Assembly (NCBI GenBank): GCA_005191425.1
Contig: SUPR01000004.1
Location: 34,729-66,728 of the forward strand
DNA: 32,000 nucleotides
Direction of reading: 5' to 3'
Source: Candidatus Helarchaeota ASGARD archaeon Hel_GB_B
GTDB taxonomy: Archaea; Asgardarchaeota; Lokiarchaeia; Helarchaeales; HEL-GB-B
Shown here one piece after another: positions 23,686 through 32,000 of the stretch (position 1 is the stretch's first letter; every line of letters begins with the position of its first letter). The translations under genes and the position numbers were made by a program. Below the pieces are notes generated by a model. It saw only the letters and a list, made by a program, of their open reading frames with translations. It was not told the DNA's origin and ran no database searches.

Positions 23686-24462
23686 TTAACTCGATTTAAG
23701 CTCTTCAAGTTTCTTATTTATCAAATATAGATTTTTTGTATATTTTTTATATAATCTAGAATATTCTCCTGAACCTATCTCTGCATTATCAAATTTTTCC
23801 TCAAGCGTCTGAAGAAGATCTTCTATTGCTATTTTTTCACTTTCCAAATCGATAATTTGTTTTTTAATTGGATCTGAAGGTAATAATATGCTTTCTAAAT
23901 TACTTGTACCCTCATCTGGGACATTATGGACGTCCAGTTGCCCTCTTAAATGTGCAACAACTTCATCTCTTTGAGTTAATCCATCTCTCAGTGAATTAAT
24001 TTCAGATTCAAGTCTCTTCACTTCTCTCTCTAATTTTTCCTCTTTACTTGATGGAATATATGAAACTGGTTCATGTTCTGGTTCTTTTTTTGCTTGAAGA
24101 TTCCTATTTAAAAGGGAGGCTAATTTTGGGGGTACACGTGCATATAACCCTTTTATTGAATTAATTACTTGATAAACATGATAATCTGGTCTCCAATATG
24201 TTAAAATTCGAAGATGAACTTGACCATTCTCATCAACTTTTGGATGTTCTGTTGGGGTTATCATTTTTACTGTAGGTGGCTTTTTAGGAAAAGCGTCAGG
24301 TATTCTTATTTCCAACTCGAAATTTGTATTTTTATATTCACCTCTACCCGGAATACTACCCCTCCAAATTTTTAAATTACCACCTACTGGCTCAAATTCT
24401 TTCGCGCGTTTATATAATAATTCTGCTTCTTTTGCCAATATAAAGTCAAGCTGTTCTGACAT
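23686..24462 (-). CDS. vps23: ESCRT-I Vps23/TSG101-like protein: UEV domain, coiled coil, steadiness box
   Basis: UBC fold lacking the catalytic Cys (HPKV...GQVHL); heptad segment; AIEDLLQTLEEKF..AEIGSGEYSRLY steadiness-box-like. Confidence 0.88.
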   Translation of the reverse strand: MSEQLDFILAKEAELLYKRAKEFEPVGGNLKIWRGSIPGRGEYKNTNFELEIRIPDAFPKKPPTVKMITPTEHPKVDENGQVHLRILTYWRPDYHVYQVINSIKGLYARVPPKLASLLNRNLQAKKEPEHEPVSYIPSSKEEKLEREVKRLESEINSLRDGLTQRDEVVAHLRGQLDVHNVPDEGTSNLESILLPSDPIKKQIIDLESEKIAIEDLLQTLEEKFDNAEIGSGEYSRLYKKYTKNLYLINKKLEELKSS

Positions 24463-25812: not shown

Positions 25813-26043
25813 ATGGACGTTCGTTTTATAGACAAAATTAAGATAATTGGAGAGTGGAATTGGGAAAAATTATCACGTTGTATTGTGTGTAATTTGCCTA
25901 TAGAAAATAATGAACCTGCCCTCATGTGTCCATATTGTAGAAATTGGGCACACAAAGACCATCTACTCGAATGGATAAAAATAAAAGGTAGATGCCCTTT
26001 TTGTAAGCGCCGACTAAACCGCAGTGATTTGATTGAAAAATAA
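25813..26043 (+). CDS. Small RING-finger protein (putative E3 ligase, archaeal srfp type)
   Basis: CIVC-x12-CPYC-x4-HKDH-x3-W-x6-CPFC cross-brace pattern; next to ubiquitin and E2. Confidence 0.88.
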   Translation: MDVRFIDKIKIIGEWNWEKLSRCIVCNLPIENNEPALMCPYCRNWAHKDHLLEWIKIKGRCPFCKRRLNRSDLIEK

Positions 26044-26071: not shown

Positions 26072-26320
26072 TTAATTTTTCGGGGAACCCCCTTCGGTCC
26101 GTGCAATTAAATAAAGTTTATCGTAATCATTTATCCCAACATCTGCTAAGCTCTGGTTTTCATTCCTAATTTCAGTACCTCTAAATGCTAATACAAAAAT
26201 CGATGTAGGAATACGTTTTCTTTGTGAAATTTCTCGCTTTAAATCAACAATTCTCGTATTTGGAGGTACTTGAATTTCCATTACATCTCCACCAATAGCA
26301 CTAACAATCCTAATAATCAT
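26072..26320 (-). CDS. Ubiquitin-like modifier precursor
   Basis: Beta-grasp pattern (IVDLKREI, LAFRG, SLADVGI, LYLIAR), RTEGG followed by an SPKN extension. Confidence 0.93.
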   Translation of the reverse strand: MIIRIVSAIGGDVMEIQVPPNTRIVDLKREISQRKRIPTSIFVLAFRGTEIRNENQSLADVGINDYDKLYLIARTEGGSPKN

Positions 26321-26527: not shown

Positions 26528-26980
26528 CTATAAATTATCCCATCGAGCATATTTCTCCAAATAATATTTTACTTCTTCTTCATATCTTTTATGATTTGTT
26601 TTCATCTGATTTGCTGCTTCTGAATTTAAAGGAGAATTTGGATTTGGAAAATTTAACAAGTTTCTTAATGCTTCAATTAGCCCTGCAATAGACATAGTCG
26701 GCGTCCAATCTTTTCCCATTGCTCCAACACATACTCTTTTTTTGTATATATTTGGATGCCAAATTGGCGTTAACCACTTTACTCTAGGTGATTCATAAGG
26801 AAATTTGCGAGTAACAGTTATTTGAATCTTAAAAACGCCTCCCTCATACATACCTGTGCCTAAGATAAACCCTTCCCACATTGTTAAATCTCCACCTATT
26901 GGCTTAAAACTGGGTTCCTCTTCCTCTAATATCTTAGCTTCATAAGCTAATCTTGCATAAAAGTCTTCATCGCTTAACAT
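26528..26980 (-). CDS. Ubiquitin-conjugating enzyme E2
   Basis: YEGGVF, FPYESPRV, WHPNI, catalytic Cys84 (RVCVG), WTP, PNPNSPLNSEAA. Confidence 0.96.
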   Translation of the reverse strand: MLSDEDFYARLAYEAKILEEEEPSFKPIGGDLTMWEGFILGTGMYEGGVFKIQITVTRKFPYESPRVKWLTPIWHPNIYKKRVCVGAMGKDWTPTMSIAGLIEALRNLLNFPNPNSPLNSEAANQMKTNHKRYEEEVKYYLEKYARWDNL

Positions 26981-27976
26981 ACTTGATTCCGTTATTTGAT
27001 TTTTTTCTTAATTCTTAATTATAAATTATTTAATTAAATAATTCAATCCATAATTAATAGGATTATAATTTTTCAATCATTCTTGTAATAATTTTTTAAT
27101 ACATGTTTTTTAAATTTTCAACTTATTATCTTTTCTCGTAATATCTTTTGAATTTTATTATAGAATTGTCATATCTAAAGAGTTGAGATTCTATTTTAAA
27201 CTATGATAATCTTTAGGCTATTAATACTATATGTTTCCTTTGTGATCTGATTTTAAATTATATAATATTTTTAATAAAAATATATAAATGTTCAGATCAT
27301 ATAATCTTATCAAAAGCAACCCATAAGCAGAATTAATATCCTTCTATAAATAATAATTAATGAATTGTTAAAAAAGTTGATTAATTTAAAATAGTTTTGT
27401 ATTTAAAAAGATAGATAAACCATCTCTATCCTTTTTATTTTAATGAAAGAATCTCATATCTTTATAATATTTGGCTAATATTAGTTAAAAACTGATCATT
27501 AATTTTTAATCTATTAATAGATTAACAATTCTTATTAATAGATTTCGATACCTTTTAGACCATATATTTACTACTATTTACCATTGATAAATTTTCCCAA
27601 TTGAAAAAATCATTTTAAATTTTTATAATGCTTTAAAATCTTATTGAATTATTTCTTATAACGATTTAAAAATTAACAAAATATTTATCACGTAAATATT
27701 TTCCGCTGACTTAATATAAAAAAAAGTGTAAGAAAATCTTTACTTTACAAACCCAGTCCCCAAAAGTACAGTATTTATAATAAACTATAGATATAATTTA
27801 GATAAATCTATGAATAAATTAATATATTTAAAGGATGAAAAATTAGTGGCAATAATTATGTGATTAATTCGACAATAATTAATATGCTATATTTGCCTCT
27901 TAATATTATTAACCACTTGATAACAATAATAAATTCTTTAATATAAATGTGATTAAGTTTTATATGGTTTGAGAAA

Positions 27977-28300
27977 ATGGAAAACAAAAAAGTGTTTACC
28001 GAAGAGGAAATGAAGCGACTTAAAAAAGTGTTTACCGAAGAGGAAATGAAGCGACTTAAAAATGTGTTTACCGAAGAGGAAATGAAGCGACTTAAAAATG
28101 TGTTTACCGAAGAGGAAATAAAGCAAATTTTAGATGAATTAACTGACAGGGAAATAAGGAGTATCATTGATGGATTTATAAGAGTCTCTTCCAAATCATG
28201 GTGGGTGTCTTTAGAGGAAGATATTGCAAATGCAGAAGTGGAATATTATAATCAGACCGAATTAGATGAAGATACTTGGAATTTTATTATAAATGAATAA
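27977..28300 (+). CDS. Hypothetical acidic protein with 12-aa tandem repeats
   Basis: K(K/N)VFTEEEMKRL x3 plus degenerate copies; stop codon 2 nt before the next ATG. Confidence 0.6.
   Translation: MENKKVFTEEEMKRLKKVFTEEEMKRLKNVFTEEEMKRLKNVFTEEEIKQILDELTDREIRSIIDGFIRVSSKSWWVSLEEDIANAEVEYYNQTELDEDTWNFIINE
27986..28124 (+). repeat. 36-bp in-frame tandem repeat, 3 full copies plus 1 partial
   Basis: AAAAA(A/T)GTGTTTACCGAAGAGGAAATGAAGCGACTT at 27986, 28022 and 28058, partial at 28094; no spacers. Confidence 0.95.
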
Positions 28301-28302
28301 AA

Positions 28303-29913
28303 ATGGTTGATTATAACAAAAAATGCAATGTTAATAAAAATATTGTTTTTTACAATAATTTTAATACTAAAAAAATTAAAGAATCAATTTTAAATGCTTT
28401 AATAGAAATAGTTAATGAATTATATGAGTCAAATAATATTTCAACTTATGAAAAATATTTAGTTCCACTAAAAAATTTAAGAGACGATACGCATTTAATA
28501 TATTTGGCGGAATATCTTAAGAAAATCAACTGTAAAACAATAATCAAAGAGAGCAATTATATAGATAAAGTATATTTAAATGATTTCTCGCAATTTTATG
28601 TAAGATGTTTTCCCCATTATAAAAAAACTTGCTCAAGATTGCATTTTTTTAATTTAGAAATTACTGAAGATGATTTTTACGATAATTATCTCTTAGGAAA
28701 AAACCTTCAAGAACATTATTTGGGATTTTCTATTATTAAACCACTTCCATTTTTTCTGGGTCGGACATGTGTCAAACCATATTTTGATCCTAATAATAAT
28801 TCGACTTTTTTTATACAACAAAAATACGAAGTAAATTTATGTGGTAAACCATTACATATAAATTCATTAATATTTCATGATAAAGATAAAGCAACAGCAG
28901 CATGCTCAACGGTTGCTCTCTGGATTTGTTTTCAAATGACCTCTCATTTATTTAAAAATCATTTACCATTACTTTCTCCATTGGAAATTACTAAACTTGC
29001 ATCTAAATCTACAACATCACCAAATAGATTAATTCCGAACAAAAGTTTAACCACGCTTCAAGTAGTTTCAATAATAAAAGAACTTAATTTGGAGTTAGAG
29101 CAACGAAAAGCTAGAAATAAGGACATTTTTTCCTTTATTTATGCATATATTCATTATAAAATTCCAATAATTCTTCTTATTGAAAGGTATAAAAATAATA
29201 GAAGGATTGGTCATGCTGTTATTGTTTCTGGAATTATTTTTAATAATTATCAAGAAAACAAATTTTTAAAAGGAAAAATTAAACTAAAAGCCCATTTCAT
29301 TAATGAATTATTAATACATGATGATAAAATTGGCCCATATATAAAAGTAACTCTTGAAATGAAAGAAAATTCATATAATCATTATTATACAATTCATATA
29401 GGTAATAATGAATATAAAATAAACAATATAATTGTTCCTGTTTATCATAAAATTAGAGTAGCACTTGAAGATATTTTATATAATAAATTTTTTATTGAGA
29501 TTAATAATTTATTTAATGAAATTTTTTCCCAAAACTCTAAAAATAATAAGAATATAGTGTCAACAATTATGTGGGATATTTTTTTGACTGATATCAATGA
29601 ATTTAAAAAAGATATTGCAAATCTCAATATCGATACTCAACTAAAAAAATCAATACTCATTTCGCCCTATCCAAAATATTTATGGCGTGCAATTATGTAT
29701 AACTACAAAAAAGATAAAATAATTCCAATATTTGAATTTCAAGTTGATGCAACTGACCTACCAAAATCCATATTTATCTATAAATCATTTTTTTATGGAA
29801 AATATAATATATTTTTTAAGCTTGGATATACAGTTGAAGGTTTAAAAAATAAAAAATATACTGATTTAGTGGAAAAAATAAAAGATCGCCTAATAAAACC
29901 CATAAAAAATTAG
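28303..29913 (+). CDS. Hypothetical protein with papain/C39-like cysteine peptidase signature
   Basis: AAC201STVALW, IGH304AVIVSG, LIHD340DKIGPY; N-terminal YIDKVYLNDF..FYVRCF...RLHFF block. Confidence 0.6.
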   Translation: MVDYNKKCNVNKNIVFYNNFNTKKIKESILNALIEIVNELYESNNISTYEKYLVPLKNLRDDTHLIYLAEYLKKINCKTIIKESNYIDKVYLNDFSQFYVRCFPHYKKTCSRLHFFNLEITEDDFYDNYLLGKNLQEHYLGFSIIKPLPFFLGRTCVKPYFDPNNNSTFFIQQKYEVNLCGKPLHINSLIFHDKDKATAACSTVALWICFQMTSHLFKNHLPLLSPLEITKLASKSTTSPNRLIPNKSLTTLQVVSIIKELNLELEQRKARNKDIFSFIYAYIHYKIPIILLIERYKNNRRIGHAVIVSGIIFNNYQENKFLKGKIKLKAHFINELLIHDDKIGPYIKVTLEMKENSYNHYYTIHIGNNEYKINNIIVPVYHKIRVALEDILYNKFFIEINNLFNEIFSQNSKNNKNIVSTIMWDIFLTDINEFKKDIANLNIDTQLKKSILISPYPKYLWRAIMYNYKKDKIIPIFEFQVDATDLPKSIFIYKSFFYGKYNIFFKLGYTVEGLKNKKYTDLVEKIKDRLIKPIKN

Positions 29914-30115
29914 ATAAAAAATGATTACGAATTAATTTTTTTAAAATATCGATTTAAATTAAATTATTATTATCAATTCTGTAATTTCTTTAATCAAAAT
30001 GAAAAGTTTAGATTTATTAAAATCCATTAAAGGTAAAACTTTTTTAAAAAGGAACGCTTTTCTAAAATGTTAATAAGAATTTATTTTTTTTTACAATTAA
30101 AGGAATAGTTTTAAA

Positions 30116-31405
30116 ATGAATATGAGCTATGACTACAAAGGAGATAAACAAATTTTAGATGAAAATACTCTTGATAAAGAATTAAAACGTTATGCAAGGC
30201 AGATTATGCTCGAGGAGTGGGATCAAGATAAAGTTTCAAACGCTACCATTTTTATTGCAGGTGTTGGTGCTTTAGGTACAATTGCAGCTATGAATTTAGC
30301 TTTAATGGGAGTAAAAAATTTGATACTTTGTGATTATGATACTGTCGAACTCTCAAATTTATCGCGACAGGTTTTATTTTTCGATGAAGATATTGGAGCG
30401 TTTAAAGTTGACGCTGCAAAAAAGAATTTATATCGATGGAATCCAGATTTAGACATCAGGATTTTTAATTCCCGACTTCAGGAAATCGATAAGAAAGTGT
30501 TTGAGGGTTCTGATATTATAATTGATGGACTTGATACATTTTCTGCGAGAAGATGGTTAAATTCTATGGCTGTAAGCTTAAACAAGCCACTAATTCACGG
30601 GGGATTATTTGGGTGGTTTGGAAATGTCCAAATAATAATTCCTGGTGAAACTGCGTGTTTAGAATGTCATCCTCTTATACCTCAGAAAAGATTACAGAAA
30701 CCATGTACACCGCTTGGTAAGGTAAGGTCTGCAGAACGCAAGGAAATTGTTGAGTCAGATGATAAAAAGATCCCATCAATTTTAACGGTCGCGTCTATTA
30801 TTGCCAGTATTCAGGTCCAAGTAGCATTGAAAATAATTTTGAATATACCTCTTTCTCATGATAATTACATTTTTTATGATGGGCTTTCTAATTCCTTTAC
30901 TAAAATGTATCTTGCGAAAAATGAGAATTGTATTATATGTTCTAATAAATATAAAACTAAGGGAGTGGAATTATCTATTTCTAATGATGATACTGTGAGG
31001 ACCATTAAAGATCGAATAATAATGACGTGGGATATAAGTGAACCATTTAATTTTATGTTTAGAGGTAAAATTTTAGAGGATTCAACAAAGATTAAAGATT
31101 TACAAATGAAAAATAGAGATGTTTTTTACGTTTGGAATAAATATATACTGCAGCCTATGAAATTTTATGCCATTTTTTCGGACGAGATTGAGCCCATCAG
31201 AATCGAACTCCCCTTAAAACCCAAGATTCTCCAAATAGTAGTCGACCGTGGGTATATTACGCGGACTAAACAAAAAATATTAGAAAAAGCAAAAAATTTA
31301 GACCAAACTGTAAAATTTTACAAAACAAAAAAATTAGATGACGGAAAATATCTTATACGATATAAAATTTTTAAAAAGTCAAATAATTCTAAAATTATTA
31401 GGTGA
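30116..31405 (+). CDS. Ubiquitin-activating enzyme E1-like (ThiF adenylation domain, catalytic Cys, Zn motifs, C-terminal ubiquitin fold)
   Basis: RYARQ, GVGALG, DYDTVELSNLSRQ, DGLDTFSARRWLN, ACLEC, KPCT, NCIIC, then a Ubl-like DTVRTIK...FRGKILED segment. Confidence 0.93.
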   Translation: MNMSYDYKGDKQILDENTLDKELKRYARQIMLEEWDQDKVSNATIFIAGVGALGTIAAMNLALMGVKNLILCDYDTVELSNLSRQVLFFDEDIGAFKVDAAKKNLYRWNPDLDIRIFNSRLQEIDKKVFEGSDIIIDGLDTFSARRWLNSMAVSLNKPLIHGGLFGWFGNVQIIIPGETACLECHPLIPQKRLQKPCTPLGKVRSAERKEIVESDDKKIPSILTVASIIASIQVQVALKIILNIPLSHDNYIFYDGLSNSFTKMYLAKNENCIICSNKYKTKGVELSISNDDTVRTIKDRIIMTWDISEPFNFMFRGKILEDSTKIKDLQMKNRDVFYVWNKYILQPMKFYAIFSDEIEPIRIELPLKPKILQIVVDRGYITRTKQKILEKAKNLDQTVKFYKTKKLDDGKYLIRYKIFKKSNNSKIIR

Positions 31406-32000
31406 TTGAATTGGTGTTACATAAACAAAAAATTCCCTTTTTTGCATCAGAAAAAGGCGAACGCCTTAAAGTACCAATATCTACCGGTAAAAAGTTTGAA
31501 ATGCGGGTATTATTTAATGAGATTAATGAACCTGGAAAATGGATTTCTGAGGATAATTCTGAATTTTTATTATTATTAACTTCAAATGGTTTTTCAGTTA
31601 ATAAATTAGAAAAAGGGCCTATTACATATAATATTATTAAGAATTTTGACATTTTTGTTCTGGGTTCAAATCGTTTAGGAGAAATGAACATCACTGCTGG
31701 TGAATTCAGGGCAATAGCCCAATTTGTTTCTGATGGTCGGGGTGTTTTATTTGTCGGTAATGAATACATTGGTGGAGATGAAAATTATAATAATTATCTA
31801 TTCCAAGTTTTTGGCGTATGTTTTAAGTCTACTATTAAAGATTCCAAGGAAAAAATTCTATCTACATCCGCTCTAGAAAATGCACCTTTAATTAATATTT
31901 TTGTTGACCACCCAATAACGTCAGATGTAAATGAAATTTTTGCTCAAAGAAATGCATCGTTGAGTATTGACCTTAGAAAACAGGTTGAACCACTTGCATT
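31402..32000 (+). CDS. Partial gene (runs off window), GIFT/DUF4350-like domain; not in the ORF track
   Basis: GTG overlaps the E1 TGA (GTGA); frame open to the window end: MRVLFNEINE (ATG 31501)...FDIFVLGS...EFRAIAQFVSDGRGVLFVGN...HPITSDVNEI. Confidence 0.7.
   Translation, partial: MIELVLHKQKIPFFASEKGERLKVPISTGKKFEMRVLFNEINEPGKWISEDNSEFLLLLTSNGFSVNKLEKGPITYNIIKNFDIFVLGSNRLGEMNITAGEFRAIAQFVSDGRGVLFVGNEYIGGDENYNNYLFQVFGVCFKSTIKDSKEKILSTSALENAPLINIFVDHPITSDVNEIFAQRNASLSIDLRKQVEPLA

Follow-up and report, generated by a model that had tools for sequence, protein, structure and literature searches.

We propose that two adjacent open reading frames (ORFs), at 27977–28300 and 28303–29913 of the window (the whole 32,000-nucleotide stretch of archaeal DNA analysed here), represent a mobile cassette of a protease and its gating partner that has been inserted at this position, providing a regulated protease able to serve ubiquitin-like (Ubl) tagging as an accessory. 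We put the probability of this reading at roughly 60%. It is based on the observation that the ubiquitin (Ub) operon of related genomes lacks the gene, on the conservation of the partner protein, and on a co-folded model in which the partner tail shares an interface with C201 and H304 of the peptidase.

The cassette in its operon

The neighbours of the cassette in the window were confirmed as E2 (UQ_con), Ub, RING, UEV/Vps23 and E1, and the peptidase gene shares the orientation of E1 and stops 202 bp short of it, exactly as originally described (Table 1). The gap between E2 and E1 spans ~3.1 kb and consists of an AT-rich spacer and the cassette. In all six relatives of the same order, each of which carries the matching UEV-RING-Ub-E2-E1 operon, E2 adjoins E1 with no cassette between them, at distances of −25 to 285 bp, the 285-bp spacing being that of a genome of the same genus; the operon linkage that would be expected of a deubiquitinase (DUB) belonging to the host Ub system was thus found in 0/6 same-order relatives. 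Across 60 relatives the gene was detected in three (G001, G003 and G029), each time in a different and unrelated context. The cassette was inserted into the E2–E1 spacer of a conserved Asgard Ub–ESCRT operon in the lineage of the window.

The GC content of the cassette is 23.2% vs 31.9% in E1, and its dS against L001, an 86%-identical relative, is 0.30, compared with 0.07 for E1 and 0.008 for the downstream gene. In L001 the gene for an IS transposase abuts the cassette on the spacer (E2) side. Within the 1-kb spacer of the window we found no tRNA, Rfam match or further ORF, and we saw no target-site duplication or terminal repeat at the cassette, nor any convincing repeats, direct or inverted, on its flanks. 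The spacers of the cassette gave no meaningful alignment to the 285-bp E2–E1 spacer of the same-genus genome, the matches between these AT-rich sequences having the appearance of chance. The cassette was probably acquired by horizontal transfer, and the alternative raised in the original prediction, that of a horizontally acquired passenger, is supported.

Table 1 Features of the cassette and its flanks in the window
Feature	Position	Strand	Remarks
E2 (UQ_con) of host Ub operon	26528..26980	-	Orthologs adjoin E1 in six relatives
AT-rich spacer, GC 18.6%	26981..27976	.	Between E2 start and cassette
Small partner gene, 107 aa	27977..28300	+	C-terminal ~60 aa homologous to the ~55–65-aa partners upstream of nearly all family members
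36-nt tandem repeat, 3.9 copies, 98% match	27986..28124	+	Inside partner gene
Papain-fold cysteine peptidase gene	28303..29913	+	536 aa; open frame
Lys194, near-invariant Gln position of the family (7 residues before Cys)	28882..28884	+	Gln in 116/121 members
Cys201 codon TGC (nucleophile position)	28903..28905	+	Invariant; first residue of helix 201–217; in predicted partner interface
His304 codon	29212..29214	+	Invariant; on strand 300–313; residues 301–305 in predicted partner interface
Asp340 and Asp341 codons	29320..29325	+	Both invariant; end of strand 333–340; residue 342 in predicted interface
E1 (ThiF domain and C-terminal Ub-like domain) of host Ub operon	30116..31405	+	

Fold and catalytic residues of the peptidase

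The AlphaFold2 model of the peptidase (pLDDT 86, pTM 0.88) comprises three domains, an N-domain (residues 1–163), a papain-like core (~164–385) and a C-terminal helical/beta domain (386–536). The core displays the order of catalytic residues characteristic of clan CA, with a cysteine at the N terminus of a helix, a histidine on a β-strand and then an aspartate, and C201, H304, D340 and D341 are unchanged throughout a 43-sequence alignment of homologs; the third residue of the triad is either D340 or D341. Model and alignment bear out the papain-like Cys-His-Asp protein that had been recognised in this ORF, with C201 at a helix start, H304 on a strand and D340 following.

The fold search likewise confirmed a papain-like α+β fold for the core, the best structural match being staphopain C (Z 12.4, rmsd 3.2, 169 aligned). 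The Ubl-specific C78 proteases are among the closest folds, namely ZUFSP (Z 11.2, rmsd 4.7, 206 aligned), UfSP2 (Z 10.2, rmsd 3.7, 184 aligned) and Mug105 (Z 9.9, rmsd 3.5, 175 aligned), but their scores (Z 8.4–11.2 for the C78 enzymes) are not above those of unrelated papain-fold peptidases such as staphopain, streptopain and C39, with the C39 domains of ComA and PCAT1 reaching Z 9.3–9.7. Altogether, 29 chains score Z ≥ 8 against the peptidase, those among the best 50 matches being papain-fold enzymes, and Foldseek returned papain-fold matches with E-values of 1e-5 to 1e-3. USP, UCH, OTU and Josephin enzymes do not appear among the best 50 VIA matches, a ranking that leaves room for them further down. 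The N-domain, which folds alone with a pLDDT of 82.6, has no convincing fold match (best VIA Z 4.9, Foldseek E 0.4), although this does not imply that its fold is novel.

The family's near-invariant glutamine seven residues before the cysteine, probably the oxyanion-hole residue, is a lysine in the window, and the oxyanion-hole Gln typical of clan CA is therefore missing. Among the 121 family members compared, lysine at this position is confined to four members of the window's archaeal subclade, in which the family motif FQEQD has become FHDKD. The lack of a Gln upstream of the Cys had already been remarked upon, as had the Asn/Ile/Lys-rich composition (I 12%, K 12%, N 10%), and both hold. Replacement of the glutamine may have altered or weakened catalysis in the archaeal subclade. 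The peptidase is under purifying selection, and the dN/dS of 0.22 against its closest relative, together with retention of every invariant residue, argues that it is still functional. We infer that the enzyme is an active peptidase.

A conserved partner with a predicted active-site tail

The small ORF, which did not feature in the original prediction, ends with its stop codon 2 nt ahead of the peptidase start. In alignment, the window partner is colinear with its bacterial counterparts, and its conserved tail ends ...ELDEDTWNFIINE. The N terminus is extended by the tandem repeat, each 36-nt copy of which encodes a repeated 12-aa unit (KVFTEEEMKRLK); the partner of L001 is shorter, at 95 aa. 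An equivalent upstream ORF is found in 70/73 GTDB loci, with the consensus tail [VIL]DPxxLxEP[FIY]T[LVI] at the end of 59 of these 70, and the metagenome loci carry an upstream ORF with a consensus-type end in 63/74 cases. The four archaeal-type loci all have the gene as well, as does G029. The most conserved part of the partner is its extreme C terminus, which lies at a constant distance from the end of the protein; in the archaeal subclade of the window this tail is altered, the window partner having N-E vs T-L in the family. No Gly-Gly motif was found in the partner proteins, and neither fusions nor extended precursors turned up among the homologs.

Co-folding of the peptidase with its partner gave an ipSAE of 0.78 (0.70, 0.79 and 0.78 in the individual runs) vs 0.01 for the best control. 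A value of 0.78 is reached by 58/80 solved complexes and by 2/110 mismatched pairs, a calibration that is only rough here because the co-fold used custom alignments. The runs share at least 84% of their contacts, with a partner pLDDT of at least 75, and the modelled interface involves residues 201–202, 301–305 and 342 of the peptidase and residues 99–107 of the partner, so that C201, H304 and D340 all lie within or beside one interface. The model suggests that the two proteins bind with the partner tail in the cleft.

A widespread family that recurs beside Ubl operons

At a cut-off of E ≤ 1e-3 the family comprises 5,992 clusters (about 6,000, counted at 50% identity), and at E ≤ 1e-30 it comprises 3,303. 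Its members are spread over many bacterial phyla, and between 88 and 95% of the ESM Atlas neighbours of the peptidase are bacterial; similar proteins do occur in bacteria, as the original prediction stated, and bacterial homologs dominate the family. This diversity points to a probable bacterial origin of the window's subclade, in a FastTree phylogeny whose deep branches and root are unreliable. The window peptidase has no match in Pfam (even at E ≤ 1), NCBIfam, PADLOC or PHROGs, and a PDB sequence search returned a single chance match (E 2.8). PF13529 (Peptidase_C39_2) matches 7/43 homologs weakly, with one long-form homolog just over the cut-off (24.7 vs 24 bits). Nothing points to an origin in phages or plasmids, since no homolog was found in phage records and only four plasmids carry one. 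Apart from the partner, no neighbour is common to more than 8/76 GTDB loci, and the contexts vary, with an integrated element that has a resolvase, restriction genes (type I as well as MmeI-like) and IS elements among them.

The commonest recurrent neighbours are Ubl–E1 operons. A ThiF/E1 operon lies within 5–7 kb of the cassette in 8/76 GTDB loci and in at least 9/80 metagenome loci, only 41 of the latter having a flank of at least 4 kb, while restriction systems, despite their far greater genomic abundance, are found in ~5/76. Overall, ~11% of ~156 sampled bacterial cassettes, plus one on a Pseudomonas plasmid, adjoin diverse Ubl-E2-E1 operons, and ~90% of the bacterial homologs lack a neighbouring E1, E2 or Ubl gene. 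The linked cassettes are distributed over four or more clades of the tree, and the operons beside them (Bub-type and others) represent no fewer than four types, including Type I Bub operons regulated by CapH/CapP as well as related Ubl-E2-JAB-E1 operons. One bacterial example is the locus of Methylotenera versatilis 7 (L091). On the P. aeruginosa plasmid NZ_OX638702.1, at 242–249 kb, multiubiquitin, ThiF, DUF6527, a small ORF and a long-form peptidase follow one another on a single strand. Of four genomes checked whose cassettes lack a nearby Ubl operon, three have no DUF6527 anywhere. The adjacency appears far above its chance frequency, which we put at <1% as an estimate and not as a computed control, and because the cassette often adjoins such bacterial operons a link to ubiquitin-type tagging is possible.

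The recurrent neighbourhood of the cassette with Ubl operons is new here. We found nothing specific on the cassette in the literature on Ubl and CapH/CapP systems, and the accessible part of a recent preprint on Bub operons, according to which the biological role of bacterial Ubl operons remains to be settled, contains no mention of the cassette or of its Ubl neighbourhood (bioRxiv 10.1101/2024.11.21.623953). The position between E2 and E1, the shared orientation with E1 and the bacterial Ubl neighbourhoods would also fit a more direct role in the Ub system than that of an add-on.

Discussion

In the mechanism that we favour, the two ORFs would act as a single mobile two-gene cassette, in which the helical partner docks on the C-terminal helical domain of the peptidase and brings the conserved tail at its C terminus up to the catalytic Cys/His. 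The tail could then gate or plug the active site in the manner of a cognate inhibitor or a product-like ligand. Such a cassette would move among unrelated genomic contexts, most of them bacterial, and because it was inserted into the E2–E1 spacer in the lineage of the window it would represent an add-on to the Asgard Ub operon rather than an ancestral Ub maturase. Its most likely role is that of a regulated protease accessory to Ub-like tagging, as either a deconjugase or an effector, given the repeated occurrence of the cassette next to bacterial Ubl-E2-E1 operons of diverse kinds. Most copies would be stand-alone modules that resemble conflict or toxin–antitoxin systems. A closer tie to Ubl conjugation is possible but clearly less probable, namely that the cassette is an unrecognised accessory module recruited repeatedly, by Type I Bub operons, at least three other types and the Asgard Ub operon, with the peptidase acting as a cysteine deconjugase or effector gated by a partner tail that mimics the tail of the modifier.

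The role originally assigned to the peptidase, that of a dedicated cysteine DUB or Ub maturase of the Asgard Ub system, which would trim off the SPKN of the Ub precursor or edit conjugates, with the partner as its regulator or as a mimic of the Ub tail, now seems rather unlikely and is for the most part unsupported. It would fit the E1-oriented gene between E2 and E1, the C78 proteases among the closest folds, the recurrence of the family by bacterial Ubl-E2-E1 operons (once immediately following the Bub genes, on their strand) and the modelled interface, in which the partner tail takes part along with the Cys/His, reminiscent of a Ub tail in the cleft of a DUB. However, the gene is missing from the operon of every same-order relative and its other copies occupy unrelated contexts, and the wider check of co-occurrence with Ub loci across genomes went the same way, with most bacterial homologs unlinked to Ubl genes. 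The Ub precursor of G004, a genome that is 82% complete and in which no copy was found, carries a 15-aa extension after GG, and the Ub of G002 and G005 is mature-ended, while in G029, which does have the cassette, no orthologous E1 was found with the window query. The window's own genome encodes at least eight JAB/MPN proteins over the Pfam cut-off, which could mature Ub. Furthermore, the C78 fold scores are matched by those of staphopain, streptopain and C39, and the modelled interface uses bulky tail residues (T-L; N-E here) and not Gly-Gly.

At the opposite extreme, the cassette might be a pure passenger of a toxin–antitoxin-like or defence type with no connection to Ub, which entered an AT-rich, insertion-prone spacer by chance and which shares defence islands with the Ubl operons. 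The layout of a small upstream gene abutting a larger one, the patchy distribution and varied contexts of the family, the faster divergence of the cassette than of its flanks and the IS at the corresponding spacer in L001 are all consistent with this, as are Bub operons in mobile elements and defence loci, reported in the preprint (bioRxiv 10.1101/2024.11.21.623953). We nevertheless consider it unlikely, given that Ubl–E1 operons outnumber restriction systems as neighbours and that this association spans several clades and operon types; PADLOC and phage matches are also lacking, and plasmid matches are limited to four. That the partner is instead a substrate or protein tag, which the peptidase processes, attaches or removes via its C terminus in the manner of Pup or Ubl termini, is very unlikely. 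The strong conservation of the extreme C terminus at a fixed distance from the end, and the interface it shares with the catalytic Cys/His in the model, would suit a tag, but there is nothing beyond the tail motif to cleave off, no extended precursor was seen, the cassette encodes no ATP-dependent activating enzyme and ~90% of loci have no nearby E1. Least probable of all is a pseudo-enzyme in the archaeal subclade, catalytically impaired and kept for binding, as the subclade-specific change of Gln to Lys might imply; the Cys, the His and both Asp are kept, dN/dS is low, and the change of the partner tail in the Lys194 subclade suggests a remodelled rather than a dead site.

For studies of the Asgard Ub–ESCRT system, our findings sound a note of caution, in that the sole papain-type ‘DUB candidate’ inside the operon is a lineage-specific mobile insertion and provides no evidence for cysteine DUBs in the ancestral Asgard Ub toolkit. 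They also bring to light a family of thousands of clusters that lacks a model in Pfam, NCBIfam, PADLOC and PHROGs and yet has a clear architecture, that of a protease with a predicted active-site plug. If the Ubl link is functional, the cassette could supply an effector or regulator so far missing from bacterial Ubl operons, and would illustrate the pairing of Ub-like tagging with an enzyme of papain fold in prokaryotes.

Comparison with known systems

The cassette displays individual features of several characterised peptidase systems. The peptidases of Bub operons (the JAB domain of BubCD, BubE/DUF6527 and Cap3; bioRxiv 10.1101/2024.11.21.623953) share neighbourhoods with the cassette. They are metallo-JAB enzymes or Ser-His β-sandwiches, in contrast to the cysteine papain fold of the cassette, and, unlike them, most cassettes sit in loci with no Ubl operon.

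The C39 and C39-like peptidases (PF13529; the double-glycine leader peptidases of ABC exporters) share the clan and the catalytic order of the window peptidase. However, neither the window nor the recurrent neighbours of the 76 loci include an ABC-transporter fusion or neighbour, the window peptidase is three times the size of a C39 domain, and the partner lacks a Gly-Gly.

The C78 Ubl-specific proteases (ZUFSP/ZUP1, UfSP1/2 and Mug105) likewise have a papain-fold core. The catalytic order of ZUFSP is Cys...His...Asp, as in the window peptidase, and the recurrence of family members near Ubl-conjugation operons is a further C78-like trait. In contrast to the C78 proteases, with which no sequence similarity was detected, the window peptidase has no recognised Ub- or UFM1-binding element, and the archaeal relatives do not preserve its linkage to Ub.

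A further parallel is with staphopain (MEROPS C47) and staphostatin. Staphopain is a protease made in the cytoplasm whose adjacent gene encodes a small inhibitor that occupies the cleft, and the window pair similarly combines a papain-fold protease of cytoplasmic synthesis with a small protein encoded beside it, for which occupation of the cleft is predicted. The conserved adjacent small gene and the predicted active-site binding are those of a protease/inhibitor or toxin–antitoxin-like pair. The PDB sequence search revealed no sequence relation between the window peptidase and staphopain, and the former, unlike staphopain, carries two additional domains and lacks both a signal peptide and a secretion context. 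Staphostatin is a β-barrel whose gene lies downstream of the protease, whereas the window partner is helical, has its gene upstream of that for the protease and, according to the model, would bind by way of its C-terminal tail.

Results

The peptidase gene between E2 and E1 is a genuine ORF whose product has no assignment in Pfam, NCBIfam, PADLOC or PHROGs. An AlphaFold2 model built from an alignment of 43 homologs is confident (pLDDT 86, pTM 0.88) and displays a helix (201-217) that begins at C201, a strand (300-313) that holds H304 and a strand (333-340) that ends at D340; C201, H304 and D340/D341 are invariant in the same alignment. In a structure search, residues ~164-385 matched papain-fold peptidases, among them staphopain C (Z 12.4, rmsd 3.2, 169 aligned), ZUFSP (Z 11.2, rmsd 4.7, 206 aligned) and UfSP2 (Z 10.2, rmsd 3.7, 184 aligned), as well as streptopain, IdeS and C39 domains. 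For the N-terminal domain, modelled separately, no convincing structural match came up. The papain fold and the Cys-His-Asp placement of the original prediction are thus borne out, as are, by annotation, the neighbouring genes it named. Its caveat that a Gln is missing before the Cys is also correct: 116 of 121 family members have a Gln at the seventh position ahead of the Cys, and in the window's archaeal subclade, but nowhere else, all four members have Lys there (FQEQD to FHDKD).

With sequences clustered at 50% identity, a profile search for the family reached 5,992 clusters at E<=1e-3 and 3,303 at the stricter E<=1e-30; almost all matches run the full length, about 500-560 aa. Named genomes with members belong to Bacteroidota, Pseudomonadota, Thermodesulfobacteriota, Planctomycetota, Cyanobacteriota, Nitrospirota, Armatimonadota, Bacillota and other phyla. 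One long-form clade of about 650-740 aa (P0027-P0029, P0031, P0032, P0034-P0038, P0040 and the members at L147 and L148) carries an extra ~170-aa C-terminal domain, with conserved motifs IW.IDE.G and GHP.LT...PARI.GEL, that the window protein does not have.

Coordinates of features in the window and in compared loci
Feature	Locus	Position	Strand	Remark
UEV/Vps23-like	window	23686-24462	-	
RING	window	25813-26043	+	
Ub	window	26072-26320	-	ends GG-SPKN
E2	window	26528-26980	-	
Partner	window	27977-28300	+	stop 2 nt upstream of peptidase ATG
Tandem repeat in partner gene	window	27986-28124		36-nt unit, 3.9 copies, 98% match
Peptidase	window	28303-29913	+	536 aa
E1	window	30116-31405	+	C-terminal Ub-like domain
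Downstream gene	window	31402-31998	+	overlaps E1 stop; runs off window
Span compared with L001	window	28303-31998		
Span compared with window	L001	1081-4774		
IS transposase (DUF772)	L001	2-460	-	
Ubl operon (Bacteroidales)	L056	9708-12417		
Long-form member	L147	6908-9088		
Long-form member	L148	6869-9028		

In every locus inspected individually, a small ORF stops a few nucleotides short of the peptidase start. This partner is present at 70 of 73 GTDB loci, 59 of which share the C-terminal consensus [VIL]-D-P-x-x-L-x-E-P-[FIY]-T-[LVI]-stop, and 63 of 74 loci in the metagenome sample have an upstream ORF with a consensus-type end. No other neighbour is common to more than 8 of 76 loci, and the two genes therefore form a self-contained cassette. 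The last ~60 residues of the window partner are colinear with the bacterial partners, and its tail is an archaeal variant ending ...ELDEDTWNFIINE. Its N terminus is lengthened by the tandem repeat, which encodes four copies of the 12-aa unit KVFTEEEMKRLK; the expansion looks recent, as the version in the closest relative is shorter and more diverged.

When the peptidase was co-folded with residues 44-107 of the partner, both proteins with their own alignments, the ipSAE was 0.78 (runs 0.70, 0.79 and 0.78) against 0.01 for the best control; the mark used, which 58 of 80 solved complexes and 2 of 110 mismatched pairs reach, is only a rough calibration where own alignments are used. Between runs, 84% or more of the contacts recur, and the partner pLDDT is at least 75. 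The modelled interface comprises, on the peptidase, residues 201-202 (the catalytic Cys), 301-305 (H304) and 342, loops 247-254 and 267-274 and the C-terminal helix 387-410, and on the partner the whole tail 99-107. The model supports, without proving, a binding mode in which the C-terminal domain would be the partner's docking site and the conserved tail of the partner would reach the catalytic centre. The archaeal subclade with Lys for Gln also has an altered, acidic-ended partner tail; this covariation fits the predicted tail-in-active-site arrangement and, as a single evolutionary event, is weak evidence.

All six same-order relatives have an orthologous E1 and the operon order UEV - coiled-coil - RING - Ub - E2 - E1 - downstream gene, with E2 adjoining E1. 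The E2-E1 spacer is 285 bp in a same-genus genome; the distance of 3.1 kb in the window is made up of a 1-kb spacer (18.6% GC) and the cassette. Only 3 of 60 same-class relatives have the peptidase gene, each in another context. The same-genus genome carries its cassette on other contigs, and the identical peptidase is seen beside an aspartyl-tRNA synthetase-type gene and a DUF6788 gene; the copy in relative G003 lies near a GH20 enzyme, ArsA and a Ras-like GTPase, and the bacterial-type copy in G029, in which the window E1 query found no orthologous E1, is near sugar-kinase and thioesterase genes.

The E1 Ub-like domain (residues ~282-337, PF00240 E 1.5e-6) belongs to a full-length form conserved in several same-order relatives. 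The downstream gene, with only weak DUF7408 and IFT52-GIFT-like matches, directly follows E1 in all of the six same-order relatives but G003, where it lies about 1.6 kb further on; possibly it is a component of the Ub operon that has yet to be characterised.

Only the metagenomic near-relative contig L001, whose E1 is 98.8% identical, shares the window arrangement. Its peptidase has 86% amino-acid identity (dS 0.30) and its partner 61%, whereas dS is 0.07 for E1 and 0.008 for the downstream gene; such unevenness between two near-identical strains suggests allele exchange or recombination at the cassette. The peptidase dN/dS of 0.22 denotes purifying selection, with all invariant residues kept. 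We presume that the protein is an active enzyme; a pseudo-enzyme in the archaeal subclade, for which the Gln-to-Lys change speaks, is barely credible. In L001 an IS transposase gene abuts the cassette on the E2 side, and copies of it occur in the window's genome on contigs C146, C67 and C127 (98% and 87% identity, with partial ~73% matches on C127). Mobile DNA seems to be drawn to the spacer between E2 and E1. The cassette has a GC content of 23.2% against 31.9% for E1. It was inserted, in this lineage specifically, into a spacer prone to insertions and is not an ancestral operon component; the direction of its horizontal transfer we infer.

Among clustered neighbours at 76 bacterial loci, the most frequent recurrent one is a ThiF/E1 protein with an HTH regulator. 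By annotation these neighbourhoods hold several kinds of Ubl-conjugation operon: Type I Bub (Multi_ubiq + Prok-E2_E, JAB-ThiF, DUF6527; L088, L091), Multi_ubiq / unnamed small protein / ThiF (L057, L149), tandem-UBL / DUF7665 / ThiF (L056) and Ubl(-GGSS) / E2-like / JAB / ThiF (L071, L076, L124, L152, L178, L181), the last with a Multi_ubiq variant (L175, L228). By profile, ThiF is a neighbour at 8 of 76 GTDB loci and at 9 of 80 metagenome loci, only 41 of those 80 having at least 4 kb of flank; L201 is one further metagenome locus with Ubl-operon genes. The eight GTDB loci are spread over four or more distinct clades of a FastTree tree, the deep branching of which cannot be relied on. Since bacterial genomes have few ThiF-family genes, we would expect ThiF within 5-7 kb at well under 1% of random loci, by our own estimate rather than a computed control. 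Restriction genes, which genomes hold in far greater number, occur at about 5 of the 76 loci.

HTH and Peptidase_M78 pairs resembling CapH/CapP frequently accompany these Ubl operons. On the P. aeruginosa plasmid NZ_OX638702.1, CapP and CapH on one strand are followed on the other, in this order, by multiubiquitin, ThiF, DUF6527, a 55-aa ORF and a 726-aa long-form family member, with flanking IS elements; at L149 and L089 the HTH, M78 peptidase, partner and peptidase genes share a strand in that order, divergent from the Ubl operon. The L056 operon is of unfamiliar make-up (tandem UBL, DUF7665, a 152-aa protein and a 444-aa ThiF protein) and adjoins CapH/CapP-like genes and a cassette; L057 has a near-identical cassette beside a different Ubl operon.

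No Ubl operon lies close to about 90% of cassettes, and DUF6527 is absent altogether from three of four genomes examined that hold such cassettes; the cassette is therefore not dependent on Ubl systems. In the 1.9-Mb genome of locus L092, the cassette and a DUF6527 (BubE) gene lie about 55 kb apart on contig C1 (about 1.70 and about 1.757 Mb).

Discussion

We propose, with a probability of about 0.6, that the two genes are a mobile cassette of a protease and its gating partner, which entered the Asgard Ub operon as a lineage-specific insertion and is not the operon's dedicated maturase. The original prediction put forward a candidate cysteine-type deubiquitinase or Ub maturase, with a horizontally acquired passenger as equally plausible; an enzyme of that kind dedicated to this operon we consider unlikely. 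Most of what that prediction itself named against such a role was found. Speaking against it are the absence of the gene from this position in the six same-order operons, the other contexts of the three carriers' copies, the divergence from L001 and the pattern of Ub extensions, which occur with or without the peptidase gene. In the window and the close relatives' Ub genes at L039-L043, the residues after the Ub Gly-Gly vary: nothing follows in G002 and G005, T follows in G001, SPKN in the window, FLQLAF in G003 and a 15-aa hydrophobic extension in G004, a genome 82% complete in which no copy of the peptidase gene was found. The window's genome (93.7% complete) also encodes JAB/MPN proteins, eight or more of which pass the Pfam cut-off.

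Given how often Ubl operons recur beside the bacterial cassettes, it is plausible, if tentative, that the cassette has an accessory part in Ub-like tagging: the peptidase could be a cysteine deconjugase or, in a version in which the partner gates it, an effector that partner removal would release. Any such link to Ub is putative. A passenger that is purely a conflict module, devoid of any Ub link, strikes us as likewise unlikely. That the partner is a tag or substrate is highly improbable. The study that defines Bub operons leaves their biological role open and, in the parts covered here, does not mention the cassette (bioRxiv 10.1101/2024.11.21.623953).

Membership of C78, C47, C10 or C39 is not assignable to the window peptidase by sequence; structurally, the C78 Ubl proteases are as close to it as the C47, C10 or C39 enzymes. 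The closest system in its working is that of staphopain and staphostatin, in which a papain-fold protease has a dedicated, co-encoded active-site blocker, blocking being predicted for the cassette. However, the window peptidase has two domains more than staphopain, and its partner, unlike staphostatin and unrelated to it, is helical, encoded upstream and predicted to be bound by its tail.
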